A stretch of 64,000 bases of DNA from IMG/VR virus record IMGVR_UViG_3300005573_000064, positions 32,001 to 96,000 of that record. One strand, given 5' to 3'. Origin of the DNA: a virus. The first letter of the stretch is position 1. Each line of letters begins with the position of its first letter. A program made the translations under genes and the position numbers. Below, one piece after another: positions 8,201-44,534 of this stretch. The notes below the pieces were generated by a model that saw nothing but the letters and a program-made list of their open reading frames with translations, searched no databases and had not been told where the DNA came from.

Positions 8201-10090
8201 TAGATACTGATGTCTGGGTAACGGAGCGTCCTCGACTTGAAGAGTGGACAGGTGACTGGCGAACTGAACTGTTACCGAGCTTACGGTGGACATGGGGCTT
8301 AAGGCGTAATAGTCCATGTCCACGATGTCGTTTATGGTCTTGGAGGTTGAGGAGTTCAGCGCCTGCCATACATACGTCCAGACTGCGGAGTTCATGGGAA
8401 TCAGGAACCATAAGTTCGAGTACTCCGACTTCGAAGCTCCGTATGTTTGGTTTTTTGCAGCGACTCTTAAAGCCTCCGCTTTGGCCATTTTCTCCTTATC
8501 GCTCAATTGATTCGACAGGGTTATGTCGTTTATGGTGAGAGACGTGGCGGACTTGTACCCGCTCCTTAACGCTGCCGACTCATACACTTGGATATCCGCA
8601 GAGGTCAAGGCGTGCAGAACATTTCTATCGGATTGAAACTGAAGGAGTGCGAAGGGCTGACCATTGGCCATAAGTGTAACCACTGGGGATTTATCCACCC
8701 TCTCCCATTTGTAAACCCCACTCCTAAGGTTTTGAAGGGCCTTAAGAACCACGGACGAATCCCTGTCAAGAACGGTCTGATTTCCTCCCGGACCTAGTTG
8801 CACCTTGTAACTCCCGGATGACAGGTTCTGACTGAGCACCGACTTGGACGGTCCCCTCCCCGGCACCGGAGTGGTTGGAACGTTCTGAGTGGGTAGTTGA
8901 GACTTGTCAATCAGGGCTTGTTTTCTTGGGATTGAAAAGACCAGATTGGAGTTGAGGCCTGAGTCCTTCGAGGAAAGGGGTGTCGGGCATCTCCTGCCTT
9001 TTACCACATCCTCGCACCACACCTTGAATAACGGCCAGCAAAAGCTTTCCTGATAGCTGCTATTCATGGGAAGGTAGCTCTTCCAGTCAAAGGGCTCGGC
9101 ATCGATGGAGACGGCAATGCCCCCGGGTATTCCCTCAAGGGATGAGATCACGACATCCCTTATGGCCAGCGCGTCAATATTCCAGGATGAATTCAAAAAC
9201 ACATTAGTGACGGGAAGAAACGGCATCCTGTTATATTGCTGAAGGATGGGAATCACAACCTCGTTATATTGTCTTTCTCCTATTGAGGAGAACTCTATTT
9301 GCACTCTTTGTATGGTGTTGTAGTCTACACTGTTAAGATCACCCTGGGATCTTAGAATGTCAACGGCCACCACCCCGTTCTCGGTGGTTATCGTTATGGA
9401 TTTGGGAGGGATGAGAAGGGTCACGTAGCCCAGCCTGAAATAGTTCATCGGGTCATAAAATCTAGCATCCTCTATCGGCAAGTCTATGGGAAATATCGCG
9501 GGCTGAGCCACCGGGGCTGCCGGGTCATAGGTCATAGTCTTCGGAGTGGTCTTATTCGAAGGGTGCTTATTGGAGGAGTCCATCAGGCTCTTCGTCTTAG
9601 GTGTTGAAGGTGCGGACTTTGAGTTTGAGCCCAGGTATGTTGGAGGCCATACGCCATCCACCGGGGATATGACCACACGGCCGGGCGCCTCCGTTAGAGG
9701 GGGAACCTGTCCTTTAATTGATTGACCGTAGATAGTGATGGCGTAAACACCGCCCGGAATTAGCGGCTCGGTTCGAGTCGGGGAGGACCCCATGAGCTTG
9801 ATGGTGAATACCGAGGACACCTGGGACGGCTGATTCTCGCTCGGCCACCGTCCCGGTGATTTGGACAATATCGCCTCATATTCGGATTTAGTATCGCACC
9901 ATTCGGATATTGAGCCGGGAGGGGAGGGGGAGTTGGCCGGAGTTGCGAATATCGGAGTTTGCGTGGCGTCATTTGATATAAGCGTAATCGGGCCCGAAGC
10001 GTCAATAACCGACTCCGGTTCCGCTCTGTAGAACACTCCGATTCCGTTATTGGAGCTTTGATAGATGCCGTATATTACAGTGTTAGCCAT
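2201..10090 (-). CDS. Giant baseplate hub / tail-associated lysin (2629 aa) with an SLT-like domain and a C-terminal M15-family peptidase
   Basis: SLT-like motifs 'GVILAESDGG...KGLMSV...YDPVANVLAG' (~6490-6800); hub-like 'LRPGVRIHIRVGYGSD...FNGTVSEV'; M15 motifs 'TSGYR..AEQ', 'SGHGFGMAAD', 'DKVHIEL' (~2270-2620); directly upstream of the spike and gp25-like genes. Confidence 0.75.
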   Translation of the reverse strand: MANTVIYGIYQSSNNGIGVFYRAEPESVIDASGPITLISNDATQTPIFATPANSPSPPGSISEWCDTKSEYEAILSKSPGRWPSENQPSQVSSVFTIKLMGSSPTRTEPLIPGGVYAITIYGQSIKGQVPPLTEAPGRVVISPVDGVWPPTYLGSNSKSAPSTPKTKSLMDSSNKHPSNKTTPKTMTYDPAAPVAQPAIFPIDLPIEDARFYDPMNYFRLGYVTLLIPPKSITITTENGVVAVDILRSQGDLNSVDYNTIQRVQIEFSSIGERQYNEVVIPILQQYNRMPFLPVTNVFLNSSWNIDALAIRDVVISSLEGIPGGIAVSIDAEPFDWKSYLPMNSSYQESFCWPLFKVWCEDVVKGRRCPTPLSSKDSGLNSNLVFSIPRKQALIDKSQLPTQNVPTTPVPGRGPSKSVLSQNLSSGSYKVQLGPGGNQTVLDRDSSVVLKALQNLRSGVYKWERVDKSPVVTLMANGQPFALLQFQSDRNVLHALTSADIQVYESAALRSGYKSATSLTINDITLSNQLSDKEKMAKAEALRVAAKNQTYGASKSEYSNLWFLIPMNSAVWTYVWQALNSSTSKTINDIVDMDYYALSPMSTVSSVTVQFASHLSTLQVEDAPLPRHQYLGGGDGFVSIQGILAGERDLELLRAMLDEVRELGRYYRTMEWDIPYPGFFGIKNSLINSLGLLHFIPINFSVSTVDGFPHLYSYQLDIMEYSPTQMRREEFDVMDKLITNWSLSLATGIPQDKLAQVMAENADKPEYLEKVLGNFYRPLTQADPLMQDIHEGSAMKEWRMSLLDARLRMVEMYPDMCLPSKVKLDHWITILRDWAHTGKDPDDPEDRKLLKSMRSVMSVNKHTLENIMMMAPSNDPMGYAEPDFFCVPAVQPTTWASELVDANFGVEVPTEELNRPSAKANSPKGYAHMLLTDSFGIQAIHKAGSHISSSTPTEDSGEAYAQQQLDLSSAYQTILAGKQSSERYSSSHYGNTPVDTEYAERYWGQTLDGLSLLQMEAGRDAPVWNGYPVLGVQTDPSYATSNYNEVIKDHPALASRVNEFLNRKSTPQIYNAVDLDNKIVTPLLHLIKTNPTQWGISQDVANHLDPGLILGVILAESDGGVRSGSGGGGSHKGLMSVSFSQDAPAIARELNQYTGKGPGEPPLGMDSSGPPPDNAYDALRNNNYDPVANVLAGILLIAGKMAAFSNDPWTMQANGVQGYRGINFGAGEMGGAGYTPGVMAFASLWNNVYSKSSPINNPSRTSPSGKKIYEEVISNAGIPKPEAARYLQMLESGQIGLDSIYRYHLCQMETRLFATPKGEKKTSPWNVVLEKYFPGTKKWEPLQGEARLAILPCLPTNIPIYPDNETTTPKSNLVDSSNMHNGYPYPTEPENGNKEWYGYTVYTDITPAAFPDPSKAANIYDYLYSKKPGALNPPAPSTLPMKFRPMFHDFQKKEYIGRLVGAFPSYLVQLVDGGMWVGIERLSDHFYGMSSVISISIVQTRKDPVDVATLAFSNLYNRLNSMAAMIELQKMQDTRTTDTFESWINGIKQFFTSQVTPDLEARREQWAKMLALRPGVRIHIRVGYGSDASQYPVRFNGTVSEVPTASDICEVVALGDGAELVKEASRNDGHWISDPIDSHQVWQNTGLFNFHGIEPRNIIGQLFSPTSSIIETLTHARWMTDNPYGIVDFGNLDFRAYGSYSLGECGVNLYESTQDPNNKSYAAENWYTINGSIAALHGQTLIGIEMESASPWGIAETCRMAVSDFILAVRPFEYRSTLFYGRDWFPYYYKYKYMTENPFQYNVSAPNPQTGSTAAKDYYVDGVDVLQDTDPDYTTLMESKAFSQFHVISSGYNLISSDITASSDNVLTECQSKYIYGGAWGSAMVYADVMHVDDDIYPQVRKGEVIQSGLLSGPGYGWEGLQRAFTWFTPINVVCHAANMYSAMTLRDAVADMYQGYSMIAGDPYMWPWDYVYFMDRGKLMNGMFQVKEVITQLSLETGYITLVSPDCLVSVASGMDTGVWMSLARFGMTVVSARLYLIAIGTILKAFSRWGLESRIVRWITGRPQAIKEAVAGKAQKAFETIAGDPEATPSETGVKPVDDLLNARKTIRDMGQGIKDAINKGADSPTGSKILGLIKKGWEGLSDAAKGIIKSVYRDIERYGLGSEEPRRATTPEGAQANANASTDTNTATSPDTGGGGEAAAPDETILPTEGETAVTQGETAVTQGETAVTQGETAVTEGETAVTEGETAVTQGETAVTQGETAVTEGEKAVTEGIDVGTQVGSDVAEGATGVGIIPLLVQLGALVITSSLGDMIGRYLAAKKCLVIMPLQVNGFEFSAGIEGHLGSVVGDPISLGDAWWASIFSTSYGREEHGIIGEIIPWVMNFVFPGATMQNPLHTNFSSSEDFIKNKLTKPNTDAWNSYMTSLNNRLAASSQGMSNPQSNYDYLFDGGNTSNTSTPSSPAVNNPNMDYSSNKTSSIYRLPVTPGTHPDLADLNPTFATNLSRFIEDMRKQNIIITVTSGYRGWAEQNAIYLSHHENEKVAARPGYSGHGFGMAADLNVSPSSAWSYVHSEARKYNLWFPIASTDKVHIELIPTIAQGFASSVLKTQPNQIGWDTWLATRESQFGR
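3266..3463. repeat. In-frame 21-bp tandem repeat (9 full copies plus a partial), encoding T(E/Q)GETAV
   Basis: Unit tacagc(g/a)gtctcacctt(c/g)ggt read directly from the sequence. Confidence 0.95.
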
Positions 10091-13000
10091 TACTTAAGTA
10101 ATCTCCCGAGAATTAGTTTTTCTATCTTGGCGATATCCGCTTTGGCATCGGTGACTTTCACCGAGACGTGACTCTTGACTTTCGCCTGGGGAATATCCTG
10201 AACATTTTTAACCAGGGATGTAATATCTCCGGCCGTTTCGGAGGATACTGAGATGTGATCTTCAACGTGCGGATCCGGGGGCGGACTTACCGGTTGAACG
10301 GCTCCGTATATTGCGGGGGTCCTTGGAATCATGTTATCAAACGCCATCTTGCCCGAGTACTCGGGGCCTGAGGCCAGGCTCGTAATCTGGCGCGTGTCAT
10401 TTCTTATTATAGCCCGTTTCTCGGTCCCCGAGAGAAACACCCTTCGTTCAGCGGGCATATCACTGCGGCCCGATCTCTTGAACGAGGTCAGGATGGTTCT
10501 CACCTCCTGCAGGTTGACGCCTCTCCCGCGCACCTTCCTGGTGGCCGTGTTGTTTCTTAGCCAGTAGTACAGGTCATTCTCCGAAATATTGAAGCGTTCG
10601 AAGACGGCTTTATGCAGAGTCTCAAGAGAAACCCCCATGATTTCGGAATCTCTTCTGGTTGCGGCCAGCCGTATCTCGCCATCTATCGCGGCCTTGATCG
10701 GGTCGACCCTGGACTTGTCCTTATAATCCCTGAGCTTCCTCCGCTGTTCCTCGGTGTTCATCTCCCCGCTTGTTTCCAAATTTTGGTGAGGCGTAAGGCT
10801 TGAATCGCCTAGAACGTTACCCTCGGTATCCTTTGGAAGCATGGCTTTATATGCGTCCAGCAGGGCCTTGTCCACTTCCTCCTCGCTTACTTTAATTTCA
10901 ACTTTTTTTACCAAAAGGTTTGTAGGTTCGATATTGCGAAGCGACTTGCCAAAATGCCGTTCAAGCTCCGAAAAACCAGGAACGTCAAAAGTAGCGGTCA
11001 AAGTATCAATGGATGTTTTCGCCCAGGGACGATACCTGAGTCTGGCTACGAAATCCAAATATCGCTCCTGTTCAAATTCATCCGGCAGATAATCCTCGTG
11101 CACTATCATTTCGGGGTGTGCTGAAGTGGCGGGGTTTATGTCTCTAAGTTTTGACTGGATAAAATATTCATCCTCCTTGCCAAGGAAGCCCTTTATAAGT
11201 TTAGGATATTTTAGGTATGCGCGTTGCTCGGATGCCGATAGCGAACTTAACTTTCGCGCTATCTCCTCCTCCTCCGTTCTACTCGAGACGGGATCGCTCC
11301 TGTACATGTAGTGCTTTTTAAAGAAATCATACAGCTCCAATTCATATAACGTGGTTTTTCCGTTAACCGCTCTGATTCCCTCGTATGCGTAATCGAATAT
11401 CTGTTCGGTGCTAAGAACTATTCCATCATAGGTATGAAAGGCTTTTCTATATAACAGACTTAGCTTCTTATCCGCCACTATATGGGACCTTGGAATATCC
11501 TTGGGAATATCAACAAGTCCCCTATAGTACGAGGCGATACGCTCCTCTTCACTTAAGCCGGTGTATTTTGCGAAGGCGTCCTCTATGCTCTTGCCGGTAT
11601 TGACCGAATCCTGTGTCAGACTAGGAAGAATCTTTTTCCTGTACATTCCGAGCATGTAGTCGTGGTACTCTAGAGACGCCACTCTCGCATTCATTTTCGC
11701 CCCCCACGCTTTTATCTTGCTAGGTCTTTTAACCTTGACTCTCTTGGGTTTCACAAGAGCCTGGGATTGCTCGGTAATCCTGTTCATCGTATTAACATGT
11801 TCGGATAGATCCTTTTCGATGCTGCTATTCCCTAACCTTAAAGCCATCTTGAAGTTACGCATTACAATCTTGAGAGGGTCGGTGACGGAATGCTCCTTGA
11901 ACGTACCCAGGATTCTAGCCCACAATCTGGAGGCCCAGCCCTTCTCACCCACGCCCCAGTGTGAAGTGGCTATGTAATGGGATATCTCTCTGGCTTTATT
12001 AAGAGAATACCTGGCCCCTCTCGCAAGATGGGAGAATAATCTGGCTGCGGGAGATTTAAGAGAGTCAGACCCCATCCTCGCCTGAGGCGAATTTTTCGGA
12101 AAGAGATAATAGTACCTTTTATGGTAGGGATCTTGAATCTGTGCAAACTGTTTGAGAATATGATCGATGTTATACTGTGCGGTGGATTCTCTGTCAAACG
12201 GCCCATCGGTACCTACGCCCCCTTCCAGATATCCTCTTATCCAACTAGGCAGTCTCTTGTAATTTCCGTAAGTTATTGCATACTCCCTTATGGGATGCGC
12301 TTCGGCAAAATTATCCAGTGTTTCAGTATCCACGGCCCCCCAACGGGCGTTCGCCATATCCACCGCGCCATAACCGGGTACTAGTTTTATTTTTATCCAG
12401 TCTCTATTTCTTGGTTCCCATCCCGTTCTGTTTTCAATATCAATGAGGTTGCTCTCAAGCCTGTCGCTGCTAAAAGTCAGCACCACCATAGGGCCTGTGC
12501 CTTTGGGGTAAGCTGCGTGCACTCGATATTTTTTAGGAAGATAGTTGGGATAACAGCAGAGTATTTTGTCAGCTTCAGACATGCCTTTAGCCATATCTGG
12601 CCACATATAGGCCCCCGGCCCGTAATGGTGAATATAAAAGGTTTCAGGCTTGGCTCCCCACGTAAACACGCCATTCCTTCCGCCAATCGGGATGGCGTGG
12701 AACAAGGCGCCTGACATATTATCCCACCTATCGGAATCACCACCGTATTCGCCCTCCTCCCATCCCCTAACCACTTGTCTAAGATCCCTGTCGGAGGAAT
12801 AGTCCGTAAATAGAAAAGCCTGTACCGAGGACCTGGTAACGGTGGGAGACGCCATGCGATTAACCGTCTTGTAATTAAAAGCGCTCCGAGGAGGAATAAA
12901 GCTCGCTATGGCGAAGGCCATGGCTATTGAGGCGAGAATTGTTAGACCCATGCCTCCTTCCAGACTCTTCATGGCGGCTTTCAAGGCATCCACGCGGGAA

Positions 13001-16000
13001 TGCTCCTTGAAGGTGCCCAGGATTCTGGCCCACAATCTGGAGGCCCACCCCTTCTCGCCAACGCTCCAGTGGCTTATGATGTAGCGACCCAGCTGTCTCG
13101 CCTTGTCAAGCGCGTGAGGAAGGAAGCCTTTTCCAAGAACCCTTCTAGCGATGGGGGATATCGAGGCTCTGGTCAGACTGCGAAATCTGCCAGGGCTCCA
13201 GCGCCTTCTAGCGTGGGAGGGCGGAAGCGAAAGCGGGGATAATGTTTCATCCATATTTAGTTGATCAACTTTGGATTCCTCGTACTTTTCTTCGAAGGGA
13301 TTCTTCTCTTCCTCCTTGGAAGGTATTACAGCCTCTCCTCCGATTATCCTATCTATTTCATCCTGGCTAAACACATATCCCGGTTCCTTTGACAGATAGG
13401 CTTTATATAACTCACTTTCCAGCCCCATTGCATTAATGTTTCTAGAAAAATCTTCATCAGCAGCTTCGGGATCGAGATACTTAGCAAAGTAATGGCGAGG
13501 GAGCGTTGCTTCAAAGCCTATGGCTTTGATATAGCCTTTAAGTCTTTTCGTGGCTTTATCTCTGCGACCTCCCACTTTCCTTGCCAATTCGTTAAGCATA
13601 TCATCATTGGATTTACGGATCGGAGGAGTTAGCTCTCCAGCCTGAGCCCTGTAAAACACTCTTCGCATTATACTGCCTTCAGGACCTGGTCCGAATATCT
13701 CGTACCATATGAGGGACATGAACTCGTTGGCTTTTTGCTCCTCCTCGCCACCAGGATGCACATAACTAGACATGGCACTCATGCGAGCTTTCGTTAGTCT
13801 GCCCTTATCTATAAGATTCCCACGAGAAAATTTCCCAATAGCTATACTAAAGTTGAAGGGGGTTTCGCCAGACATATCGATAGGAATCTCGTGTAAAATA
13901 AGGTCTCTGGCCAAGGAGGAATTTGCATATCTGGAGAAGTGAGTGATTGCTCTGACGCCTTCTATAATGTGTTCTTTATGAAATTTGACCCTCGCCCTTT
14001 GGAGCTCGTCTTGTGGTATTGACCGAAATGTTCTTGTCTGATCCAGCTTAAGATACTCAATGAAGGACAGCGCGTGGCCAAACTCATGAGCCATCGATGC
14101 CGCGATCAGCTCCTCGTCAGACAAATTCCCGAAAGATTTGTGCTGAGATCTCATTAGATCGAAAACGTCACGATTTTCGGCCCATGCGCTCCTATCGTGA
14201 GGTAGCTGAATAAGTCCGTAGTCACATATAGGTGCAAAAGCTGGCTCGGAGAAGGGATACGCACTTATATCCACAAAAGCCAACACCGGGTACTTACGAA
14301 TTATGTGCTTGTACACTCTACTGGCCAGGGGAAGGTCCTTTAGAATTATAAGATTAGTGGTTACGGTGCTATGCTGTCGCAGGTTGACACTCCCGCTTAG
14401 CCAATGCATAAAGTCTTCATCCGAAACCTCGGGCGCAGTCTGGGAGCCGGACCACCCCATCCGATCCAAAGCGTACGCTGCGGCACGCAGCGGCTCAAGT
14501 GTTGAATGCTCCTTGAACGTCCCTAGAATTCTAGCCCATAGTCTGGAGGCCCAGCCCTTCTCACCTACGCCCCAATGGCTTATGACATAGCGACCCAACT
14601 GTCTCGCCTTGTCAAGCGCGTGAGGAATGAAGCCTTTTCCAAGAACCCTTCTATCGATGGGGGATATCGAGGCTCCGGTCAGACTGCGAAATCTGCCAAG
14701 GCTCCAGCGCCTTCTAGCGCGGGAGGAGGAAAGTGAAAGCGGTGGTAATGTTCTAGCCATATTTATAGGTATGGAAGGTAGCGTATTCAGTATTACCAAT
14801 ACTTTTTCCAGGCCGTACTTATCCGATAGCGCCTTAAGTTGGTCACCGGCCTCCAAGGAATTCCTATTTATGCCTCTAATTTCCTCGGCTATCTTTCTTA
14901 CTTCATCCTCACCGTATGCGGAGAAAACATCGTTAAGGTTTGACCTTTGGTACCCTTCGATACGTAACTCGCTCTCACTCTTCTCCATTAGGGGTATTGG
15001 AATAACTCCTCCGGTTATTCTGCTTATTTCATTGGGACTAAATACGAATCCCTCCCCTTTCGCCAAATAGGTTTCGTATAACTTGTTATGCGCTCTTAAA
15101 TTAATGGATAACTGCCTGGGGTTCCTCTCTAAATAACGACCAAAGTATGCATTAAAGTACTCGTCAGGAGTCATTACCCCATAGCCCATGGCTTTGATAA
15201 AGCCTTCAAGTCTTTCCGTGGCTTTGTCTCTGCGACCTCCCGCTGTCCTTGCCAATTCGTTAAACACATCCTCGTTGGATCTGCGGGCCCGAGGAGTTAG
15301 CTTTCCGGCCTGGACCATATGGAATATTCTTCGCATTATACTGCCTTCAGGACCTGGTCCGAACATCTCGTACCACGTGCGGGACATGAACTCGTTGGCT
15401 TTTTGCTCCTCCTCGCCACCAGGATGCACATGAAGACTTATGGCATCCATGCGAGCCTTCGTTAGTCTGTCCTGGTCTATAAGACCCCACAGAGAAACTT
15501 TAGAAACAAAGTTACTCAGATTAAAGGAGAGTCCGTTACGCCTATTGATAGGAATCTCGTATAAAATAAGGTCTTTGGCAAAGGGGGAATTTGCATACCT
15601 GGAGAAGTGAGTAACTATTCTGGTGTTTTCTATAATGTTTTCTATTGCAAATTTGTGCGATACTCTTAGGAACTCGTTTCGTAACGTTGAGTCAAACGAC
15701 TCATATGACGCATTCGGATCAAGCTTAAGGTGCTCCAAGGCGGACAGCGCATGACCAAACTCATGAGCCATCGCTGTCGCGACCACCTCCTCGTCAGACA
15801 AATTCCCGAAAAATTTGTGCTGAGCTCTAATTAGATCGAAAAACTCCCTGTACTTAGGCCACTCGCTCCTATCGTGAGGTAAATACATAATTAGAGAGTA
15901 ATACTGAAATTCAAACCCCGGCTCATCGATGGGGAACCGACCTATATCCACATAACTTAAAATCGGGTACTTACTAATTAAGTGCTTGTACACTCTACTT

Positions 16001-19000
16001 AGCAGAGGCAGATCTTTTAGGATATCAAGATTTTTGATTATGGTGTCACGTTGCCCCTCATTAACAGCCCCGCTTAGCCAATGCATAAAGTCTTCATCCG
16101 AAATCTTAGGCGCAGTCTGGGAGCCGGACCACCCCATCCGATCCAAAGCGTACGCTGCGGCACGCAGCGGCTCAAGCGATGAGTGCTCCTTGAACGTGCC
16201 TAGAATTCTAGCCCACAGTCTGGAGGCCCAGCCCTTCTCGCCAACGCCCCAATGGCTTATGACATAACGACCCAATTGTCTCGCCTTGTCAAGCGCGTGA
16301 GGAATGAAGCCTTTTCCAAGAACCCTTCTAGCGATGGGGGATATCGAGGCTCCGGTCAGACTGCGAAATCTGCCAAGGCTCCAGCGCCTTCTCTCGCGAG
16401 ATGGCGGCATCAGGAATGCGGAGGACCCTATGATTCCGTTTGAGGGCATCCCATTCGGCTCAGCATTCGCCATTACCGTTTTGACTGCGTTGGGCGCCAT
16501 CCCGGGATCAGGCCCAGGTCCGAAATTTTGCTTCAGATAGAGATCATACGCCTTGAATGCATCTTCCTCCGCCTGTGCCGAAAGGAGGCCTTCCTTAACC
16601 AGAAAGATATACTCTTCGGGTGTTGTATTAAGCCCCTGGGCTTCGAAGTACTTTCGCAGCCTTAGGTCGCTTTCCCTCTGAAGCCGTCTGGCCTTTTCCA
16701 GGGTTCGAGCCAGCCTCTCATCACCGGACATTCTAATCGGGGGAGTTAGCTTTCCGGCCTGAGCCATGTCGAACATTCTTCGCATTACACTGCCTTCAGG
16801 ACCCGGGCCACGTAGCTTGTACCACATGCGGAACATGTACTCATTGGCTATTTGCTCGTCCTCCTGCGTGGTGTGCATCCAGCGGTTCCAGGCATAGATG
16901 CGGGCTTCGGTAAGCTTGGTGGTGTCTAGGAATTTCGCAGAACGGAATGTATTAAGTCTGTCAATAGCTGACTGATCCTCCCAAGTAGGGAGTTGTGATA
17001 AAATAAGATCCCTGTACAAAGAGGACTTCGCATATCGAGATCCCGTAATGGCTCTTCTAATGCTTTCCGTAATTGGTGTTGTCCAGTACATCCTTTCCGT
17101 CTTTGACACCTGCATGCTCATGGCATTACTTAACGATACTCTCCGATTGACACCGAAAGTCTTATACGCATCCAAAGCGTGCCCGAATTCATGGGCTAAT
17201 ACCACTGCAGCCGTCTCCTCGTCAGATAACTTTCCTAAGGCTTTATATTGCATTTTGGTCGCTTTCAGAAGTTTATCTCTTACATCTCCCCTAACTATGG
17301 AGAATAGGTGAACGATCCCGTACTCGGAGTTCGGATCAAAACGCGGAGATTGAGACGTATCAGTGCTTATTTTCACAAAAGCCAGAGTCGGGCTTCTAAG
17401 AATTACGTGCTTATACATGCTCCTGACAAGGTTAAGATCCTTTAGGAGATTAAGATTTTCAATTATGGTGTCACGTTGCCGCTCATCGATAATCCCGCTT
17501 AGCGAACTTATAAAAGCTTCGTCCGAAACCTCAGGTGCAGGCTGGAAGTTGAACCCCATCTGAGTCAAAGCGTACACTGCGGCACGCAGTGGCTCAAGCG
17601 ATGAGTGCTCCTTGAACGTGCCCAGGATTCTGGCCCACAATCTGGAGGCCCACCCCTTCTCACCCACGCCCCAATGGCTGATGACATAACGACCCAATTG
17701 TCTCGCCTTGTCAAGCGCGTGAGGAAGGAAGCCTTTTCCAAGAACCCTTCTGGCGATGGGGGATATCGAGGCTCCGGTCAGACTACGAAATCTGCCAAGG
17801 CTCCAGCGCCTTCTCTCGCGAGATGGCGGCATCAGTAATGCGGAGGACCATGTGATTCCCTTTGAGGGCATGCCGTTCGGCTCAGCGTCCGCCATTACCG
17901 TTTTGGCTGCGGTGGGCGCCATCCCGGAATCAAATCCGCGTTCGGAATTTTGCTTCAGATAGAGATCATACGCCTCGGATGCGGCCTCCTCCGCCCCTGG
18001 CGGGAGGTGCCCTTCACTAACAATATTGACAAAACCTTCGGGTGTGATATTAAGTTTATGAGCTTCAAAGAACTTTCGCAGCTTCCGGTCGCTTTCCTTC
18101 CTAAGCCGTCTGGCCTTTTCCAGGGTTCGAGCCAGCCTCTCATCACCGGACATTCTAATCGGGGGAGTTAGCTTTCCGGCCTGAGCCATGTCGAACATTC
18201 TTCGCATTACACTGCCTTCAGGACCCGGGCCACGTAGCTTGTACATCATGAGGAACATGTACTCGTTAGCTATCTGCTCGTCCTCCTGCGTGGTGTGCAT
18301 CCAGCGGTTCCACGCATCGATGCGGGCTTCGGTAAGCTTAGCGGTATCTAGGAATCTACTGCTGTAAAATTGCTCAAGGCCACCAACAGCGGAAGTCCTT
18401 GCACGGGTAGGTAGTTGTGATAGAATCAGGTCTCTGTGCAGAGAGGACTTCGCATATCGGGACTCCATCATGGCACTTCGAATACTTTCAGTGATCGGTG
18501 TTGTCCAGTCCGCCTTCACTTTTAGTGCCTTCTTAATTCCCCTAAGGTACCTTAACGACAGACTCTGATTGACACCAAAAGTCCTATACGCATCCAAAGC
18601 GTGTCCAAACTCATGAGCCATCGCTGCTGCAATCATCTCCTCGTCCGAAACCGCTCCCAGGGCTTTGTTCTGTGTTCTGAGTATCCTCAGAAGCAGGTCC
18701 TTATTCCTGCCACTGGCCATGGAGAGAATGTTAATGGTCCCGTATTCGGAGCCTGCATTAAAACTCGGAGGGCGGGACGTATCAGCGCTTATTTTCACAA
18801 AAGCCAGAATCGGGTTTTCAGTAATTATGTGCTTGTACATCCTCCCGACCAGAGGAAGGTTTCTTAGGAGATTAAGATTTTCGATTATGGTTTCACGCTG
18901 TCGCCAATTGATAATCCCGCTTAGCGAACTCAGAAAGGCTTCGTCCGAAACCTCGGGCGCAGTCTGGGAGCCGGACCACCCCATCTGAGTCGCAGCATAC

Positions 19001-22000
19001 GCTGCGGCACGCAGCGGCTCAAGTGACGAATGCTCCTTGAATGTACCTAGTAGCGTAGCCAGCAGTCGGGAGGCCGGCCCTTTCTCTCCAACGCCCCAGT
19101 GCTTGACAAGATAGGATGAAAAGACTCTCGCTTTCCGTAGCGCCCATCCCGTTCTTATATCGGAAGGAATTGCGGCCACGACTCCCGGGCCTCCCTTTCT
19201 CTTAAAGAGATTAAGAAAGCTTTTTAGCGGATTCCACGCGAGTTTTCCTATCCCGCCAGTATACTCGACAGCCCATTGACTAGACCTATAGTAAACTCCG
19301 AGTGAGTCCAGAATCTTCTTTTCCATCTGCACAAGGTCAGTCTCGTTCCTTGTAAGAAAGGCGTAATGGGATGTTATGGATCTTGGATTCTCAAGGGATT
19401 TTTTAAAGGCTCTGATAACTCTGCCATAATCGCCACTCTGTACGCTCTCCAAGCCCTTCTGTATTCTTCTCTCTATTAAGTCTTTATTTGTAAGTGTTAT
19501 ATTGCCTCTGTAAGCCATGGACATTAGAGTCTCGTAGGCAAACGCATCGGCATAAACTTCGGCCGGATTTTCTCTGTAGATAATGTTTCCGTATAGGAGT
19601 TTAAGATACGGATTGACGGATGACCTGCGGAACCTTAACTTGCTTGCCGCCCTTCTCCTCCATACTCGGTTTCTAATATCCTCAAACGCATCCTCGCTGA
19701 ATACGCCCATTTCCGAGCTGGCTATCTTGTTTCCAACATCCAGCCATCTGTGAGCATGCCCCATCTCATGAGCGAAAATGAACTTGGATAAGACCTCAGG
19801 ATCATTGGGATCAAACCCGGCACGCCCAACGAAATACCTTAAGGGAATCTGGCTGGGATCTGTGAAACTAGCCAGGGACCCTCCGGGGGGGAACACCACC
19901 TTATAGTCGCTAGGCGATTCGAAATTGCCAAAGAACATACCGGGAATTCCCGCTATAAGGAATTCGACATCAAAGTGGATGGGTATGGTTGACAGCCTGG
20001 GATCGAGCGCGATGGCTTCCTCGTACACATCCTGCAGATAATCAGGCAGGGATTGCAGCGTTTGCTGGTAGGCTCTCCTTTGAGTCTCTGTCAGTTCGGG
20101 TTTTGCGTAATCGGACCTGGTGAGCTTTCCTTCGTATATCCTTTTGGCCACGCCAAGAGCCGCTATTCGGGCCGCTGCGGCCACGGAATGGGATTTGTAC
20201 GTGCCAAGAGCGTTAGCCTGAGCCCGGGAGTGGGGACCTTTCTCTCCGACTCCCGCGTGGGAGTAGGCGATTTGGGCGGAGTAATCGTCCTTTCTCATAT
20301 GCCTGTCAATCCACCTTCCCACCGGAACCAGTATTCCCTTCATTACGTAGAAGGACGCGATATCGATTACAGGGTCTATTATCTCCTGAATAGGCAATGA
20401 CACGCTGCGCAAGGTGTCTCTTCCCAAGGCCTGCTCGATATTGCCGGTTATTTTGCCAGAGAGGCTTTGAAGAAGACTGACCCCTCTTTTAACGCTGGCG
20501 CTTTTCTCGGAAGCCCACGCGCTTCCGAAGTCGGAGCCAAGACTCCCATAGAACTCGGCCATCCCGGTTAGAAGCTTTGCCGCCCCCTCCCTTACCGAAG
20601 GATAGCGAACGAGCTGATGACTAAGGTACTGGGAGACGGGATAGGAAATGGCCTCCTTGGCCACCCAAGGCAGGGATGAGACAAACTGCCCCAGTGTTTG
20701 GTCGCCTGCCGCGTAGCCTAAAAGCGAACGTATGGCCTTTCCGGTTCCGAAGGATATGAAGAGTCGGGGGTAGCTTCCGGAGACATGAGCGAGCCCGGCT
20801 ATGATTTTACCGGCCGTAGGCTCGTCCTCCGACAATTTGGCCGCCTGCAGCCACCCTCGTCTGAACAGAGAAGCCGCATGCAAAAGCGTCCAGTGGCCGG
20901 CCAAAAACATAGCGCCTTTCATAAGAGGATTATTTGAGTAATTGTCGTCCTCCACCGGGGAGCCGGGGCCGCTGCCTAGATTGCCGACCCAGTTGGCCTC
21001 GTCCCAGCTGTACGCTCTGTTATTGGTTGCCGACCAGCGCTGCGCGATTCGGTCCTCGGCCTCCCGTCTCGCCTCGTCCCTTCTCTTCTCAGATTGATTT
21101 ATGACATGATATAATCCGTAAGCGGCCCCTATCACCCCGAGAGCCGCAAGTCCGTAGCCTACGGGCTTTTTATTCTTGTCGAACCAGTCAAACAGGGAAT
21201 CCCACATCGAACCGGTGGGGGGCTCGCCCCCTCCTCCGATCCCGCCTCCGGCTTCGGGCGGCACACCGGTACCTCCGCCTGCACTCCCGGCCCCGGCCAC
21301 TCCTCCGGTGCTTCCTTCGGCCGCGCGTACGCTCTCGCTTTCCCTTAGTTTCCTTTGCCGTCTGCGTTCTCGCGCTTCATCCCGCTGTTTCAGCAGCTTA
21401 TCCAGTTTCTGCTTTCTAGCCTTTTCCCACTGTTCGTTCTGACGCCTCCATTCCTCCTCTTGCTGACGCTGTCGCTCCTCCTTCGCTTGTTGCTCCCGTA
21501 TCCTAGTTTGCTCCTTCGCTTTCGCCTCTTCCTCTATGCGCTGCAGGATCCTTTCGCTTCGGTTTCTTTCGATCTCCTGTCTGGCCTCCCACTCCGACAT
21601 GGCCTTCTCGTACTCACGCTTGTACTCCGGGTCGGAAGCCAGCCTCTCCTCGTGAATCTTTCTTTGCTCCTCTAACCGCTCTCGGAACGACCTGTCCTGC
21701 TCCTCCTGTAATTTTCTGAACTCCTCAAGCCTCTCGAATGTTGAAGGGGATTGTGGGGACTCGGAGTTCAGCTTCGCGTAAATCTCCGCCCACCCGGTAG
21801 CACGCTTGGAGGTCCTTCTCCACATCGCCTCCACCTTACCGGGAATAGGAGTTGAGGCGCCATGCTTTTTCTTCCACCATTCCGCCATCCGGTTGACATA
21901 TGTTTCCTCGGGCTCGATAAGACCGGTCATGCGGCCTGTTAGAAGAGAGTGGTGGAACGCTATGGTCCTTGGATTGCGCATGGACCTTTCAAAGGCCTCC

Positions 22001-24078
22001 ATGGCCTCATCATATCCACCTTGGTGAATGATATCCATAGCGGACTCTATCTTCTTCTTCAGGAGGGTCCCACTGGCGAGCGGCAAATCGCCACTGTAAG
22101 CGAGGGACATTAGGACCTCATAAGCAAACTTGTCCGCATAAACCTCGGCAGGGTTCTCCCTGTAGAGGATGTTTCCGTATATGTTTCTGAGGTACGGGTT
22201 GGAGGATAACGTCTTGATCTCCTCGCTCTCTTTTCCCCACACCGTATTTATAATGTCCTCGAACGCCTTCCCGCTAAATACGTTTTTCTCCGCGTGGTAC
22301 TCCTTTTTCCCTATATCCAGCAGTCTGTGTGCGTGTCCCATTTCATGAGTGAAAATAAACCTGGATATGGTTTCGTCATTAGGATCAAGTCCGGCACGTT
22401 CAATGAGACGTTTCAGGGGAAGTATGCGAGGGTCATAAATACTCGCCAGACGGTCCCCCTTTCTTCCTAGCGGATATACCAACCTGTAATTCTCTATGGA
22501 GTTGGTCTTGCTGACGAATATACCAGGGATATTTTTCTTGGCCAATTCAGGATCGAATACCACAGGTATGGACACCAGTCTTGGATCTAACGCTATGGCC
22601 CTCGCGTACGCGCCTTTCAGATACTTAGGCAAGGACTGCAGCGTTCTCTGATACAACTCTTCCTGCTCCGCTGTCAGTACCGGTCTTGTGTAACCGCTCG
22701 CGGTTAGCTTGCCTTCATATATCCTTTTGGCCACGCCAAGCGCGGCTATTCGGGCCGCTGCGGCCACGGAATGGGACTTGTACGTGCCAAGCGCGTCCGC
22801 CTGAGCCCGGGAGTAAGGGCCTTTCTCCCCGACTCCCGCATGGGAGTAGGCGTAAGCCTGCGATGCCGAGCTGGAGCCGCTCATAAGCCTTTTCTTTCTC
22901 TCGGCATCGCCTCTTCTTCCGGATAAGATATGATACAACCCGTAGCCCGCTCCGAGAATTCCCGCAGCGGCAAGGCCGTAACCTAAAAGACTTTTTACTT
23001 CGCCAAGTCCGCTGGAACTCAGGCTGCGCGCCAAACCGGAGGCCTGATTGTCGTCCTCGCTTTCGGCCTCAACCCCAAGCGTGCTTTTCACCGCCTTTTC
23101 CACTACGGTTTTCGCTTCAGCCGCTCGCGATTCTTCAGCCACCCTTTCAGTCGCTGTCGGAGCTTCGAATGCGCTTGCGCTTTTTGCCACAGGTTCACCC
23201 GCAGGCCTCGCTTCGGACCGTTCCAATCGACTTGAAAAATCACCCGATTTCTCCGTCTCTTTTCCGGGACTTACCTCCTCAGGCTTACCTACGGACTCAC
23301 GCACATACGGTTCAAGTTCGGAGATGCGTTCTTGGAGATTCGCCATCATTTTGAGACGGACGTCATCCAGAACCTGATCACCAAAATTCAGATTGCCGAG
23401 TTCCCTGTGGGATTGCTCCATCCATCCCTGAAACTCGGATACCCGTCTTCTTAGCTCCTCGTTCCCCGGCTCACCGTTATACTGTCGTACCCACTTGAGA
23501 AACTCAGATGTTCGGACGCCAAGCTCTCCCACAACTTGGGCGAAGAGAACGGACGGACGCTCCCGACCGGGGCCCAGACTGCGGGACACCTCTTCGGCTC
23601 CCTTCCGGGCGGCCTTTAACGGATCAACCTGTGAGTGGGACTTGTACGTACCCAGCTCCTCGGCCTGAGCTCTGGAGTAAGGGCCTTTTTCTCCAACCCC
23701 TGCATGAGAGTAGGCGTAGGCCTGAGACGCCAGACCGGAGCTTTCGCTAATATCAGTAAACAGACTCCCTCTCACCGGGACGGGCACCGAATCCAACCCT
23801 CCGCTCCATACTCTATCGTCAGGAATCAGGAATGGGGAAAGAGCCAGCCTGTTTCTTTCCGGTTCGTAAAAGTGGGAGCCAAGACTTTTGGAACCAAGTC
23901 CTGAAACTAGAAAAGGCGCAGGAGCCCCGCTGTCATCGGGGGATGCCGAACGCATCGGGGAGGCCACATTAAAGGCGCCAAGATGCGCCCCCGAAAGTTG
24001 CGAACCTGTCTCAAGGTACGGCCTTGTCTCCCAATATACGCCTCGTCCTGCTATGCCTCTATCATTAACAATTGACAT
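10090..24078 (-). CDS. Giant modular polyprotein (4662 aa) with six HExxH zincin (ImmA/IrrE-like) domains separated by a recurring 25-aa motif; probably virion-packaged
   Basis: HEMGH at 22333-22347 and 19756-19770; HEFGH at 18601-18615, 17179-17193, 15751-15765 and 14074-14088. Each is followed by an E-x-x-A-[DN]-x-[FY] motif. Located in the tail/baseplate operon. Confidence 0.8.
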   Translation of the reverse strand: MSIVNDRGIAGRGVYWETRPYLETGSQLSGAHLGAFNVASPMRSASPDDSGAPAPFLVSGLGSKSLGSHFYEPERNRLALSPFLIPDDRVWSGGLDSVPVPVRGSLFTDISESSGLASQAYAYSHAGVGEKGPYSRAQAEELGTYKSHSQVDPLKAARKGAEEVSRSLGPGRERPSVLFAQVVGELGVRTSEFLKWVRQYNGEPGNEELRRRVSEFQGWMEQSHRELGNLNFGDQVLDDVRLKMMANLQERISELEPYVRESVGKPEEVSPGKETEKSGDFSSRLERSEARPAGEPVAKSASAFEAPTATERVAEESRAAEAKTVVEKAVKSTLGVEAESEDDNQASGLARSLSSSGLGEVKSLLGYGLAAAGILGAGYGLYHILSGRRGDAERKKRLMSGSSSASQAYAYSHAGVGEKGPYSRAQADALGTYKSHSVAAAARIAALGVAKRIYEGKLTASGYTRPVLTAEQEELYQRTLQSLPKYLKGAYARAIALDPRLVSIPVVFDPELAKKNIPGIFVSKTNSIENYRLVYPLGRKGDRLASIYDPRILPLKRLIERAGLDPNDETISRFIFTHEMGHAHRLLDIGKKEYHAEKNVFSGKAFEDIINTVWGKESEEIKTLSSNPYLRNIYGNILYRENPAEVYADKFAYEVLMSLAYSGDLPLASGTLLKKKIESAMDIIHQGGYDEAMEAFERSMRNPRTIAFHHSLLTGRMTGLIEPEETYVNRMAEWWKKKHGASTPIPGKVEAMWRRTSKRATGWAEIYAKLNSESPQSPSTFERLEEFRKLQEEQDRSFRERLEEQRKIHEERLASDPEYKREYEKAMSEWEARQEIERNRSERILQRIEEEAKAKEQTRIREQQAKEERQRQQEEEWRRQNEQWEKARKQKLDKLLKQRDEARERRRQRKLRESESVRAAEGSTGGVAGAGSAGGGTGVPPEAGGGIGGGGEPPTGSMWDSLFDWFDKNKKPVGYGLAALGVIGAAYGLYHVINQSEKRRDEARREAEDRIAQRWSATNNRAYSWDEANWVGNLGSGPGSPVEDDNYSNNPLMKGAMFLAGHWTLLHAASLFRRGWLQAAKLSEDEPTAGKIIAGLAHVSGSYPRLFISFGTGKAIRSLLGYAAGDQTLGQFVSSLPWVAKEAISYPVSQYLSHQLVRYPSVREGAAKLLTGMAEFYGSLGSDFGSAWASEKSASVKRGVSLLQSLSGKITGNIEQALGRDTLRSVSLPIQEIIDPVIDIASFYVMKGILVPVGRWIDRHMRKDDYSAQIAYSHAGVGEKGPHSRAQANALGTYKSHSVAAAARIAALGVAKRIYEGKLTRSDYAKPELTETQRRAYQQTLQSLPDYLQDVYEEAIALDPRLSTIPIHFDVEFLIAGIPGMFFGNFESPSDYKVVFPPGGSLASFTDPSQIPLRYFVGRAGFDPNDPEVLSKFIFAHEMGHAHRWLDVGNKIASSEMGVFSEDAFEDIRNRVWRRRAASKLRFRRSSVNPYLKLLYGNIIYRENPAEVYADAFAYETLMSMAYRGNITLTNKDLIERRIQKGLESVQSGDYGRVIRAFKKSLENPRSITSHYAFLTRNETDLVQMEKKILDSLGVYYRSSQWAVEYTGGIGKLAWNPLKSFLNLFKRKGGPGVVAAIPSDIRTGWALRKARVFSSYLVKHWGVGEKGPASRLLATLLGTFKEHSSLEPLRAAAYAATQMGWSGSQTAPEVSDEAFLSSLSGIINWRQRETIIENLNLLRNLPLVGRMYKHIITENPILAFVKISADTSRPPSFNAGSEYGTINILSMASGRNKDLLLRILRTQNKALGAVSDEEMIAAAMAHEFGHALDAYRTFGVNQSLSLRYLRGIKKALKVKADWTTPITESIRSAMMESRYAKSSLHRDLILSQLPTRARTSAVGGLEQFYSSRFLDTAKLTEARIDAWNRWMHTTQEDEQIANEYMFLMMYKLRGPGPEGSVMRRMFDMAQAGKLTPPIRMSGDERLARTLEKARRLRKESDRKLRKFFEAHKLNITPEGFVNIVSEGHLPPGAEEAASEAYDLYLKQNSERGFDSGMAPTAAKTVMADAEPNGMPSKGITWSSALLMPPSRERRRWSLGRFRSLTGASISPIARRVLGKGFLPHALDKARQLGRYVISHWGVGEKGWASRLWARILGTFKEHSSLEPLRAAVYALTQMGFNFQPAPEVSDEAFISSLSGIIDERQRDTIIENLNLLKDLNLVRSMYKHVILRSPTLAFVKISTDTSQSPRFDPNSEYGIVHLFSIVRGDVRDKLLKATKMQYKALGKLSDEETAAVVLAHEFGHALDAYKTFGVNRRVSLSNAMSMQVSKTERMYWTTPITESIRRAITGSRYAKSSLYRDLILSQLPTWEDQSAIDRLNTFRSAKFLDTTKLTEARIYAWNRWMHTTQEDEQIANEYMFRMWYKLRGPGPEGSVMRRMFDMAQAGKLTPPIRMSGDERLARTLEKARRLQRESDLRLRKYFEAQGLNTTPEEYIFLVKEGLLSAQAEEDAFKAYDLYLKQNFGPGPDPGMAPNAVKTVMANAEPNGMPSNGIIGSSAFLMPPSRERRRWSLGRFRSLTGASISPIARRVLGKGFIPHALDKARQLGRYVISHWGVGEKGWASRLWARILGTFKEHSSLEPLRAAAYALDRMGWSGSQTAPKISDEDFMHWLSGAVNEGQRDTIIKNLDILKDLPLLSRVYKHLISKYPILSYVDIGRFPIDEPGFEFQYYSLIMYLPHDRSEWPKYREFFDLIRAQHKFFGNLSDEEVVATAMAHEFGHALSALEHLKLDPNASYESFDSTLRNEFLRVSHKFAIENIIENTRIVTHFSRYANSPFAKDLILYEIPINRRNGLSFNLSNFVSKVSLWGLIDQDRLTKARMDAISLHVHPGGEEEQKANEFMSRTWYEMFGPGPEGSIMRRIFHMVQAGKLTPRARRSNEDVFNELARTAGGRRDKATERLEGFIKAMGYGVMTPDEYFNAYFGRYLERNPRQLSINLRAHNKLYETYLAKGEGFVFSPNEISRITGGVIPIPLMEKSESELRIEGYQRSNLNDVFSAYGEDEVRKIAEEIRGINRNSLEAGDQLKALSDKYGLEKVLVILNTLPSIPINMARTLPPLSLSSSRARRRWSLGRFRSLTGASISPIDRRVLGKGFIPHALDKARQLGRYVISHWGVGEKGWASRLWARILGTFKEHSTLEPLRAAAYALDRMGWSGSQTAPEVSDEDFMHWLSGSVNLRQHSTVTTNLIILKDLPLASRVYKHIIRKYPVLAFVDISAYPFSEPAFAPICDYGLIQLPHDRSAWAENRDVFDLMRSQHKSFGNLSDEELIAASMAHEFGHALSFIEYLKLDQTRTFRSIPQDELQRARVKFHKEHIIEGVRAITHFSRYANSSLARDLILHEIPIDMSGETPFNFSIAIGKFSRGNLIDKGRLTKARMSAMSSYVHPGGEEEQKANEFMSLIWYEIFGPGPEGSIMRRVFYRAQAGELTPPIRKSNDDMLNELARKVGGRRDKATKRLKGYIKAIGFEATLPRHYFAKYLDPEAADEDFSRNINAMGLESELYKAYLSKEPGYVFSQDEIDRIIGGEAVIPSKEEEKNPFEEKYEESKVDQLNMDETLSPLSLPPSHARRRWSPGRFRSLTRASISPIARRVLGKGFLPHALDKARQLGRYIISHWSVGEKGWASRLWARILGTFKEHSRVDALKAAMKSLEGGMGLTILASIAMAFAIASFIPPRSAFNYKTVNRMASPTVTRSSVQAFLFTDYSSDRDLRQVVRGWEEGEYGGDSDRWDNMSGALFHAIPIGGRNGVFTWGAKPETFYIHHYGPGAYMWPDMAKGMSEADKILCCYPNYLPKKYRVHAAYPKGTGPMVVLTFSSDRLESNLIDIENRTGWEPRNRDWIKIKLVPGYGAVDMANARWGAVDTETLDNFAEAHPIREYAITYGNYKRLPSWIRGYLEGGVGTDGPFDRESTAQYNIDHILKQFAQIQDPYHKRYYYLFPKNSPQARMGSDSLKSPAARLFSHLARGARYSLNKAREISHYIATSHWGVGEKGWASRLWARILGTFKEHSVTDPLKIVMRNFKMALRLGNSSIEKDLSEHVNTMNRITEQSQALVKPKRVKVKRPSKIKAWGAKMNARVASLEYHDYMLGMYRKKILPSLTQDSVNTGKSIEDAFAKYTGLSEEERIASYYRGLVDIPKDIPRSHIVADKKLSLLYRKAFHTYDGIVLSTEQIFDYAYEGIRAVNGKTTLYELELYDFFKKHYMYRSDPVSSRTEEEEIARKLSSLSASEQRAYLKYPKLIKGFLGKEDEYFIQSKLRDINPATSAHPEMIVHEDYLPDEFEQERYLDFVARLRYRPWAKTSIDTLTATFDVPGFSELERHFGKSLRNIEPTNLLVKKVEIKVSEEEVDKALLDAYKAMLPKDTEGNVLGDSSLTPHQNLETSGEMNTEEQRRKLRDYKDKSRVDPIKAAIDGEIRLAATRRDSEIMGVSLETLHKAVFERFNISENDLYYWLRNNTATRKVRGRGVNLQEVRTILTSFKRSGRSDMPAERRVFLSGTEKRAIIRNDTRQITSLASGPEYSGKMAFDNMIPRTPAIYGAVQPVSPPPDPHVEDHISVSSETAGDITSLVKNVQDIPQAKVKSHVSVKVTDAKADIAKIEKLILGRLLK
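12997..17814 (-). repeat. Four dispersed near-identical 213-bp direct repeats (12997-13209, 14503-14715, 16180-16392, 17602-17814) forming module junctions of the giant protein
   Basis: Each encodes RRRWS(L/P)GRFRSLT...ALDKARQLGRY.ISHW.VGEKGWASRLWARILGTFKEHS; equal length confirmed by counting. Confidence 0.9.
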
Positions 24079-37299: not shown

Positions 37300-38223
37300 T
37301 CAGCGGTCCGATGGACCACCCCCGGCCGTGAGGGGCTCGAAAAACTCCAGCACCAGCCTCTCCTCCGGTGAACTATCCGGAAAGAGGTAATAGTTCATTT
37401 TATTCCCAGGGTCGCGGATCAGCGCGAAATGTCTGATAAGATAATCATTGTCATACCGCACCGTGAATTTCTCTCCGAACTTCCCTCTCCCGTCCTCCAG
37501 AGACTCTCTTATCGATGGCGGCAGTCTTTTGTAATTTCCGTAAGTTATCGCGTACTCCCTTAGAGGATGCGCCTTGGCGAACGCCTCGAGCGTATCCCTG
37601 TCGTAAGCCTTCCATCGGGCGTTTTCCATGTCCGTTACGCCATAACCGGGAATAAGTTTTATTGTTATCCAGTCTCCATCCTTCGGCTCGCCTCCCGTCT
37701 TGTCCTCGACATCCTTAAGGTCGCTCTCAAGCCTATCCCCGGTGAAAGCCAGCTGTTGCATCTCGCCAACGCCTTTGGGGTAAAAGGAGCGCATCCTGTA
37801 CTCCTTGGGAAGAAAGTTCGGATAGCAGCAGATTATCCTGTCAGCCTTGGCCATCAGCGGGGATATGTAACCATTCGGACAGTAATGCTGAAGCTCAATG
37901 GCTTCCGGTTTCGCTCCCCACATAAACACGCCATTCTCACCGCCAATAGGGATGGCGTGAAACAGGACGCCCGCCATATTATCCCAATCCTTGGTGTCGT
38001 AGCAGGCCGCCCTTTTCCACGCCCGCACCGCTTTCCTAAGGGCTTTGTTGGACAAGTAGTCCGTAATCAGAAAAGCTTTCACCGAGGACCTGGTGACGGT
38101 GGGGGATGTCATGCGATTAGCCATCCCACGGTCAAAAGCTCCTTGATGAGTGACAAGGCTTAGAACGATGAAAGCCGCAACTTTTGCGAGTGAACTTGTG
38201 AAAATATTTGATAACGCTTGCAT
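37300..38223 (-). CDS. Hypothetical protein (307 aa) with an N-terminal signal/TM segment; paralog of one module of the 4662-aa protein
   Basis: Shares long blocks (SPTVTRSSV.AFL.TDY, LFHAIPIGG.NGVF.WGAKPE, CCYPN, REYAITYGNYKRLP) with 12085-12960. Confidence 0.8.
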   Translation of the reverse strand: MQALSNIFTSSLAKVAAFIVLSLVTHQGAFDRGMANRMTSPTVTRSSVKAFLITDYLSNKALRKAVRAWKRAACYDTKDWDNMAGVLFHAIPIGGENGVFMWGAKPEAIELQHYCPNGYISPLMAKADRIICCYPNFLPKEYRMRSFYPKGVGEMQQLAFTGDRLESDLKDVEDKTGGEPKDGDWITIKLIPGYGVTDMENARWKAYDRDTLEAFAKAHPLREYAITYGNYKRLPPSIRESLEDGRGKFGEKFTVRYDNDYLIRHFALIRDPGNKMNYYLFPDSSPEERLVLEFFEPLTAGGGPSDR

Positions 38224-38259
38224 GATTGTCTCGTGGAGTAATTCCCTTGAGGGAGGAAT

Positions 38260-44513: not shown

Positions 44514-44534
44514 GTTCTTTTCCTCCATCCGAGA

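Follow-up and report, generated by a model that had tools for sequence, protein, structure and literature searches.

A stand-alone phage gene and its diverged copy within a tag-delimited giant protein of an uncultivated jumbo-type phage

How does a complete gene come to be present in the same viral genome a second time, as one internal module of a giant protein? The question is raised by a stretch of 64,000 nucleotides, hereafter the window, which comprises bases 32001-96000 of the 117,564-base IMG/VR virus record IMGVR_UViG_3300005573_000064 (estimated completeness 65%). It encodes a giant open reading frame (ORF), P0001, in which copies of a recurrent sequence tag alternate with inserted payloads, the cassettes, and a free-standing gene, P0002, that is a paralogue of the payload behind tag copy 8 (coordinates in Table 1). 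The virus is an uncultivated jumbo-type contractile-tailed phage and a distant relative of Bacillus phage 0305phi8-36. The pair is a further, unusually complete instance of the movement between stand-alone genes and virion-protein domains that has been known since 2007; what is new here is the tag-delimited array and a cassette that consists of a whole gene together with its leader.

One domain in two settings

BLASTP aligns P0002 with the giant over 288 positions, 161 of which are identical (56%; 71% positives, 9 gap positions, E 4e-107). Residues 12-290 of the free protein pair with residues 3715-4002 of the giant, corresponding to about 12073-12936 of the window, which agrees with the limits of 12085-12960 that an earlier note on this DNA had given for the payload. 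The same note had claimed that the payload aligns with the 307-residue protein along its full length; the BLASTP result bears this out, and every motif that it quoted (NRMxSPTVTRSSV, LFHAIPIGGxNGVFxWGAKPE, CCYPN, IKLxPGYG, REYAITYGNYKRLP and YYLFP) can be seen in the alignment. At the DNA level the identity is 69.4% over 798 nucleotides (38125-37353 paired with 12868-12072), and payload and free gene overall share 67-69% of their nucleotides. A search of the whole 117.5-kb record yields exactly two matches to the domain, the free gene and module 8. These alignments show that the two copies are homologous over the whole payload.

Both copies open with a hydrophobic segment, as had been proposed. 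This leader is the strongest hydrophobic stretch of each protein, and that of the module copy is the most hydrophobic 19-mer in all 4662 residues of the giant. Compared on their own the two leaders are modestly similar, with a local score of 31 that is reached by 96 of 5000 shuffles; seven other hydrophobic segments of the window score 14-22 in the same comparison, and the similarity of the leaders is collinear with the remaining alignment. The free copy was said to lack the tag, and so it does: the tag profile matches the giant ORF only, and the flanks of the free gene hold no trace of tag or linker. The pair is one domain of ~290 amino acids that opens with a transmembrane-like helix and exists as two diverged, functional paralogues. 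Close to the cassette leader, an AAGGAGG sequence (window 12949-12959, minus strand) lies one base before the ATG of Met3710, with which the leader of cassette 8 begins. The spacing appears too short for a start site, and the sequence may be a chance occurrence or a relic.

Both reading frames are intact. Over 301 aligned codons, the non-synonymous (dN) and synonymous (dS) divergence between the free and the module copy is 0.32 and 1.12, respectively, and dN/dS is 0.29. Decay of either copy is rejected, because two branches of about equal length could not average 0.29 if one of them had drifted neutrally; both copies are under purifying selection, and neither is a decaying fragment. The earlier note had allowed for the opposite outcome, a domain that always belongs to giant proteins with the free copy as its decaying remnant. 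Neither half of that picture fits: the free ORF is intact at the ratio given above, and no homologue shows the domain only in giants.

The public gene call for the free gene, P0003, begins at Met34 (274 amino acids) and thereby drops the hydrophobic leader. We favour the ATG at 38223 over Met34 because residues 12-33 are conserved with the module; a well-placed Shine-Dalgarno site was found at neither start. The free gene shares its frame with the TGA stop of the upstream chaperonin homologue, which lies 12 codons before the ATG (window 38224-38262), a placement that coincidence produces in one of three cases.

Beyond this record the domain is exceedingly rare. A phmmer search of 1.84 billion representative proteins returned four rows, namely P0003, the giant itself, P0004 and P0005. 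The last is a 92-residue fragment from a 1-kb contig; P0004 is a repetitive fibre, and its match was judged spurious. Of two word-indexed searches one found P0003 alone and the other P0003 and P0005, a profile search gave nothing beyond the phmmer rows, and pattern scans of viral, metagenome and genome contigs revealed no relative. The domain is thus an orphan family, represented in almost no other sequence. P0002 matches no credible family in Pfam (E <= 0.1), PHROG, NCBIfam or PADLOC, the module copy has no match in Pfam at E <= 1, and a PDB profile search with the domain gave nothing below E 0.15. AlphaFold, run on the two-sequence alignment of the domain, reached a predicted local distance difference test score (pLDDT) of 33.4, and the Atlas entry of the free protein has a model pLDDT of 0.31 and structure matches with template modelling (TM) scores < 0.3. 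An Atlas feature lead to DUF4291 (PF14124; 0.75) was unconfirmed: neither copy has a Pfam match to it, and PF14124, searched against all six frames of the record, was without a match at E <= 10. The domain has a histidine (in LFHAIPIGG) followed after ~43 residues by a cysteine (in IICCYPN), a spacing that resembles that of His-Cys dyad peptidases and on which we base no claim. At a guess, the domain is an envelope-associated effector or enzyme.

The tag array and its core protein

When the whole record is searched with a profile of the nine tags, the giant ORF alone responds, with nine strong matches; a tenth is insignificant. Tag copies 5-9 share 89-93% of their nucleotides with the reference copy, and this homogeneity of the junction DNA, far above the 67-69% that separates payload and free gene, suggests gene conversion or very strong constraint. 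A 1134-nucleotide Logan contig from run X1, which is possibly the source sample, covers positions 11909-13042 with 0 differences. Because this contig spans tag 8, payload and tag 9, the payload is physically joined to both tags in a second assembly. The order of the cassettes, in turn, is that of the original metagenome assembly, because contigs break within the repeated tags.

Elsewhere the profile picks out three real tag-bearing proteins, P0007 (580 amino acids), P0008 (541 amino acids) and P0006 (1318 amino acids); a fourth row, P0009, was dropped as a chance repeat protein. An alignment of the three defines the core of the family: two tags flank a hydrophobic helical domain, with an N domain before the first tag and a C domain after the second. 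P0007 and P0008 have two tags and no cargo; in P0006 an insert after the second tag contributes an ADPrib_exo_Tox domain, whose 30.5 bits exceed the cut-off of 23.4, together with a third tag. P0007 is encoded (L020, 10001-11743) by the relative G006, a 122-kb virus record estimated to be 79% complete, whose major capsid protein (MCP) is 70% identical to that of the window phage, whose gene order matches and whose orthologues share 30-70% identity with those of the window. There it holds the giant's exact slot, between the homologues of a 1946- and a 2629-residue gene. The two ends of the giant and its residues 1083-1352 match the core, and the pre-tag and tag sequences before giant tags 5-8 match residues 39-116 of P0007 at 40-42% identity. 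The tag, 25 amino acids long, is accordingly part of a junction unit of ~80 amino acids that was copied from the N-terminal region of the core protein. Because the cargo-less, two-tag P0007 sits in the same slot in a relative, the giant is a core protein of 541-580 amino acids expanded by about eight payloads, each preceded by a junction unit; and because the G006 orthologue is cargo-less and the cargo of P0006 is different, the payloads are lineage-specific additions to a conserved core. Placed among homologues of 0305phi8-36 virion proteins, the giant is for that reason probably a virion or ejection protein, and its junction units may act as packing and/or cleavage signals.

Cassette 8 stands apart from the other cassettes in two respects: it is the only one with a free-standing paralogue (payloads were compared with the ORFs of this record, of the relative G001 and of the fetched parts of G006), and the only one whose tag is immediately followed by a strong hydrophobic helix. 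The payloads include HExxH modules. The Pfam matches of the giant are to Peptidase_M48 (26.7 bits, above the cut-off, with the whole protein) and M43 (22.4 bits, below the cut-off), and single modules searched at E <= 1 gave chance-level rows only. The G+C content at third codon positions (GC3) is 0.497 in the module copy (z = -2.6) and 0.617 in the free copy, against 0.598 +/- 0.039 for 51 ORFs. The module shares its low value with the remaining cargo: segments 3-9 of the giant (window 10090-20300) range from 0.48 to 0.56, those neighbouring module 8 from 0.48 to 0.53, and core segments 2 and 10 from 0.62 to 0.63, a contrast suggesting that the cassettes either have a history of their own or are constrained differently.

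The family is small. Tag scans of viral contigs and core scans of metagenome and genome contigs found nothing, further scans that used the core and the C domain as queries led back to G006 alone, and the tag family has no match among cultured phages. AlphaFold on the core, with three sequences, gave mostly helices at a pLDDT of 37.7.

The free gene's locus and the origin of the pair

The free gene belongs to the late structural operon, where its two neighbours are homologues of a tail chaperonin and of virion protein gp145 of 0305phi8-36. The earlier note had placed it between the tail chaperone and a tape-measure-like gene. The first neighbour was correctly named, being a gp143 homologue, but the second is the gp145 homologue, and the tape measure of 0305phi8-36 is assigned to gp146, the gene after gp145 (PMC2147016). 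In 0305phi8-36 gp144 overlaps the start of gp145. In five of five related loci, a gap of 5-8 nucleotides that holds no other gene separates the chaperonin homologue from the gp145-like giant gene, whose product has 2150-2259 amino acids in the relatives; the five loci come from five contigs and fall into two sequence types, with two loci of the G006 type and three of the G001 type. Because the junction is closed in all five, the free gene is, by parsimony, a lineage-specific insertion in the window's lineage. The domain profile matched none of ten relative records, G006 included, most of these records being fragments. Morons are single-gene insertions that often bring their own promoter and terminator. 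The free gene is a single-gene insertion relative to all five loci; promoter- or terminator-like sites and repeats were not found at its flanks. It is therefore not a textbook moron, and is expected to be transcribed with the late operon.

The earlier note inferred either recruitment of a gene behind the tag or its release from the polyprotein. That inference is supported, and it fits both the lineage-specific payloads and the junction that is closed in each of the related loci. We give an even chance to capture, by which a complete stand-alone gene with a membrane anchor became one cassette of the giant. A moron-like accessory gene, either the resident copy or that of a related phage, would have been captured by recombination into the junction array. 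The array would carry the domain into the virion for delivery at infection, with the junction units probably serving as its points of release or docking. As a late product of the structural operon, the free copy would be taken to the membrane by its own anchor and would presumably act from there late in infection. The hints that favour capture are indirect. Module 8 alone opens with a strong hydrophobic helix after its tag, as would be expected had the leader of a membrane protein been imported; the GC3 of the free copy is typical of the genome (0.617 versus 0.497); and the published precedent runs in this direction. In 0305phi8-36, a domain of the virion protein gp142 is 41% identical to the stand-alone moron gp209 (paralogue family f) and absent from a relative's orthologue, and such domains were proposed to arrive as stand-alone genes and then to be moved by intragenomic recombination (Hardies et al. 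2007, PMC2147016).

Several observations weigh against capture. Homologues are too few for a rooted tree that would give the direction of transfer, and P0005 is no nearer to one copy than to the other (22 and 20 of 63 columns). The free gene lacks a promoter, terminator and flanking repeats of its own. The combination of an atypical module GC3 (0.497) and a typical free-copy GC3 (0.617) fits separate import better than copying within the genome. The pair is about as divergent (56%) as orthologues of the window and G006 (30-70%), yet the available part of G006, an estimated 79%, has neither copy. A virion location of the giant and cleavage of its tags are hypothetical, the AlphaFold models of domain and core are poor (pLDDT 33 and 38), and the cassette order across the repeated junctions depends on metagenome assembly.

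A possible, though doubtful, alternative is that the two copies were imported separately, the cassette with its cargo block by tag-guided recombination from the giant gene of another phage and the free gene by an unrelated insertion. Both copies would then stem from an unsampled, shared gene pool, in keeping with a cargo GC3 of 0.48-0.56 against 0.62-0.63 for the core and 0.598 +/- 0.039 for the ORFs; the near-identical junction DNA would represent recombination sites, and the two copies have diverged as deeply as one phage from another. However, one 92-residue fragment is the sole other carrier in the collections searched, so that two independent arrivals of so rare a family are less parsimonious, and the low GC3 could instead reflect a different constraint on cargo.

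That the traffic ran outwards from the giant is unlikely. The domain would first have been a cassette of the polyprotein; a copy, cut out along the boundaries of the cassette, would then have landed between the chaperonin and gp145-like genes and gained a start codon there. Such a release would explain why the limits of the free gene coincide with those of the payload (homology runs from ~12 residues after the ATG to 17 before the stop), and the free gene does sit at a derived position behind a weak ribosome-binding site. Its flanks, however, hold no vestige of tag or linker, its GC3 is genome-typical where that of the cassette is atypical, the membrane helix directly after the tag is unique to cassette 8 and makes better sense as the leader of a stand-alone protein, and the published precedent goes the opposite way (PMC2147016). 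Finally, that the pair is an assembly duplication, a chance match or a dying fragment is very improbable: this is a metagenome assembly that contains repeats, but E 4e-107 excludes a chance match, 67-69% nucleotide identity an assembly duplicate and dN/dS 0.29 a lineage neutral throughout, and the second assembly links the payload to its tags.

The surroundings of the pair are summarised in Table 1. All large ORFs of the window are carried by the minus strand, and the gene identities derive from PHROG and Pfam matches. By capsid protein, the closest cultured phages are Moorella phage MTATph1 and the Bacillus phage 0305phi8-36 group (35-38% identity, 8 records), 0305phi8-36 itself standing at 35%; a megablast search of the phage collection gave no match. 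The 2629-residue gene is homologous to gp147 of 0305phi8-36 (tblastn against the annotated structural region), a T4 gp27-like hub with cell-wall-degrading domains (Hardies et al., PMC2147016). The stretch is present in two public runs labelled hot springs metagenome, in one of which, X2, parts of it are without cover; no RNA run carrying it is among the public runs listed.

Directly upstream of the chaperonin gene lies a Ser/Gly/Thr-rich ORF of 508 amino acids (38817-40343, minus strand), whose product begins like a signal peptide and matches no family. G001 and G006 lack it at the same position. It is a second lineage-specific, envelope-directed extra gene, possibly encoding an outer-membrane or secreted protein of the phage, so that two such extras flank the chaperonin gene, the free gene on one side and the 508-residue gene on the other. 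G006 (L021, 7160-8485) retains the two-gene chaperonin arrangement of 0305phi8-36, and the C-terminal part of its 222-residue protein resembles the N-terminal part of its 202-residue protein. The window has the second chaperonin gene only, the first being replaced by the unrelated 508-residue gene.

Table 1. Features of the window, with positions counted from its first base
Feature	Position	Strand	Basis
Giant ORF P0001, 4662 aa, 9 tags and about 8 inserted payloads	10090..24078	minus	tag profile, core alignment
Cassette 8 payload of P0001, ~residues 3706-4002, paralogue of P0002	12072..12963	minus	aa/nt alignment
Hydrophobic leader, module copy, residues 3710-3728	12895..12951	minus	Kyte-Doolittle mean 2.17
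Tag copy 8, N-terminal side of payload	12998..13071	minus	91% nt identity to tag 9 (repeat family D6)
Tag copy 9, C-terminal side of payload	11888..11961	minus	tag profile, repeat family D6
Free-standing gene P0002, 307 aa, orphan domain with N-terminal hydrophobic helix, in late structural operon	37300..38223	minus	ORF and translation
Hydrophobic leader, free copy, residues 7-25	38149..38205	minus	Kyte-Doolittle mean 1.91
188-aa homologue of 0305phi8-36 gp143/144-type tail chaperonin, upstream neighbour of P0002	38260..38826	minus	tblastn match inside gp143, E 3.9e-7
1990-aa homologue of 0305phi8-36 virion protein gp145, downstream neighbour of P0002	31268..37240	minus	tblastn E 4.8e-76
2629-aa protein, VanY domain at C-terminus	2201-10090	minus	PHROG/Pfam
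Tube-like proteins	42007-42801 and 41255-41920	minus	PHROG/Pfam
Tail sheath	42816-44528	minus	PHROG/Pfam
Major capsid protein	49745-50902	minus	PHROG/Pfam
Protease-like gene	52256-53875	minus	PHROG/Pfam
Portal	54588-56363	minus	PHROG/Pfam
Large terminase	58136-59725	minus	PHROG/Pfam

Relation to known systems

The pair is a clean and datable example of an entire gene, leader included, that stands on its own and also forms a cassette of a virion-operon protein, with relatives that preserve both the uncargoed orthologue and the empty insertion site. It makes the cassette model of the giant testable, by way of cutting at the junctions and of the tagged copy in the particle versus the free copy in the membrane. 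A bolder notion, which we hold tentatively and would sooner doubt than believe, is that the 541-580-residue protein is an open 'loading rack' whose junction unit is both the recombination site for whole-gene capture and the packing and freeing signal at infection. If this were true, the pair would be a preserved intermediate of a general route by which late accessory genes become injected effectors.

A single literature search on phage polyproteins with repeated processing sites yielded no such tag array, only papers on animal and plant viruses and general papers on jumbo phages. Polyvalent proteins come close in scale. These very large proteins of phages and conjugative elements combine 2-15 effector-type domains, HExxH peptidases and ADP-ribosyltransferases among them; some of the domains also occur solo in phages, and peptidase-mediated processing and delivery with the DNA have been proposed (Iyer et al. 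2017, PMC5512222). The giant likewise unites about eight payloads, HExxH modules included, and its relative P0006 has an ADP-ribosyltransferase domain. Unlike polyvalent proteins, it matched no zincin peptidase of the polyvalent type and no signature domain (in Pfam, the weak M48 and M43 matches), and the available portion of PMC5512222 features no repeated junction tag and has 0 occurrences of 'linker'. The giant gene is also placed between the gene at the tape-measure position and the hub gene; packaging and delivery of its product would be predicted from this place among structural genes homologous to those of 0305phi8-36 virion proteins.

Polymorphic toxins (Zhang et al. 2012, PMC3482391) and the MuF toxins of phages (Jamet et al. 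2017, PMC5576092) offer a second parallel, as they too join a conserved trafficking part to variable payloads that recombine with stand-alone cassettes. In them, as far as the available text of these papers goes, a single variable toxin sits at the C-terminus, an immunity gene lies next to it and silent cassettes are nearby. The giant differs in that its payloads are multiple and internal (3706-4002 of 4662 for cassette 8), an immunity gene is not evident, the next genes encoding the hub homologue and tail proteins, and the free copy, a complete gene, lies at a distance of 25 kb. In phage T4, the internal proteins and Alt, an ADP-ribosyltransferase, are preceded by a short targeting or cleavage sequence and are packed and injected. 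The ADP-ribosyltransferase cargo of P0006 is reminiscent of Alt, but the T4 proteins are single, each with one N-terminal signal, and cleavage at the tags is hypothetical here.

The published precedent is the gp209/gp142 pair of 0305phi8-36 (PMC2147016), a phage of the same lineage judging from its MCP (35%) and its chaperonin, gp145 and hub homologues. Both pairs are old paralogues (41% identical there, 56% here) made up of a stand-alone gene and a domain within a large protein of the virion operon, and the domain is missing from a relative's orthologue, which here is the cargo-less, 580-residue protein of G006, a record negative for the domain profile. The differences lie in the recipient and in the form of the gene. 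Compared with what the available text of PMC2147016 describes, the recipient here strings cassettes together with a conserved junction unit of ~80 amino acids between them, a whole ORF with its membrane leader makes up one cassette, and the stand-alone copy sits inside the tail operon, where no promoter or terminator of its own was found. The idea put forward for 0305phi8-36 in 2007 is thus extended to a tag-delimited array.

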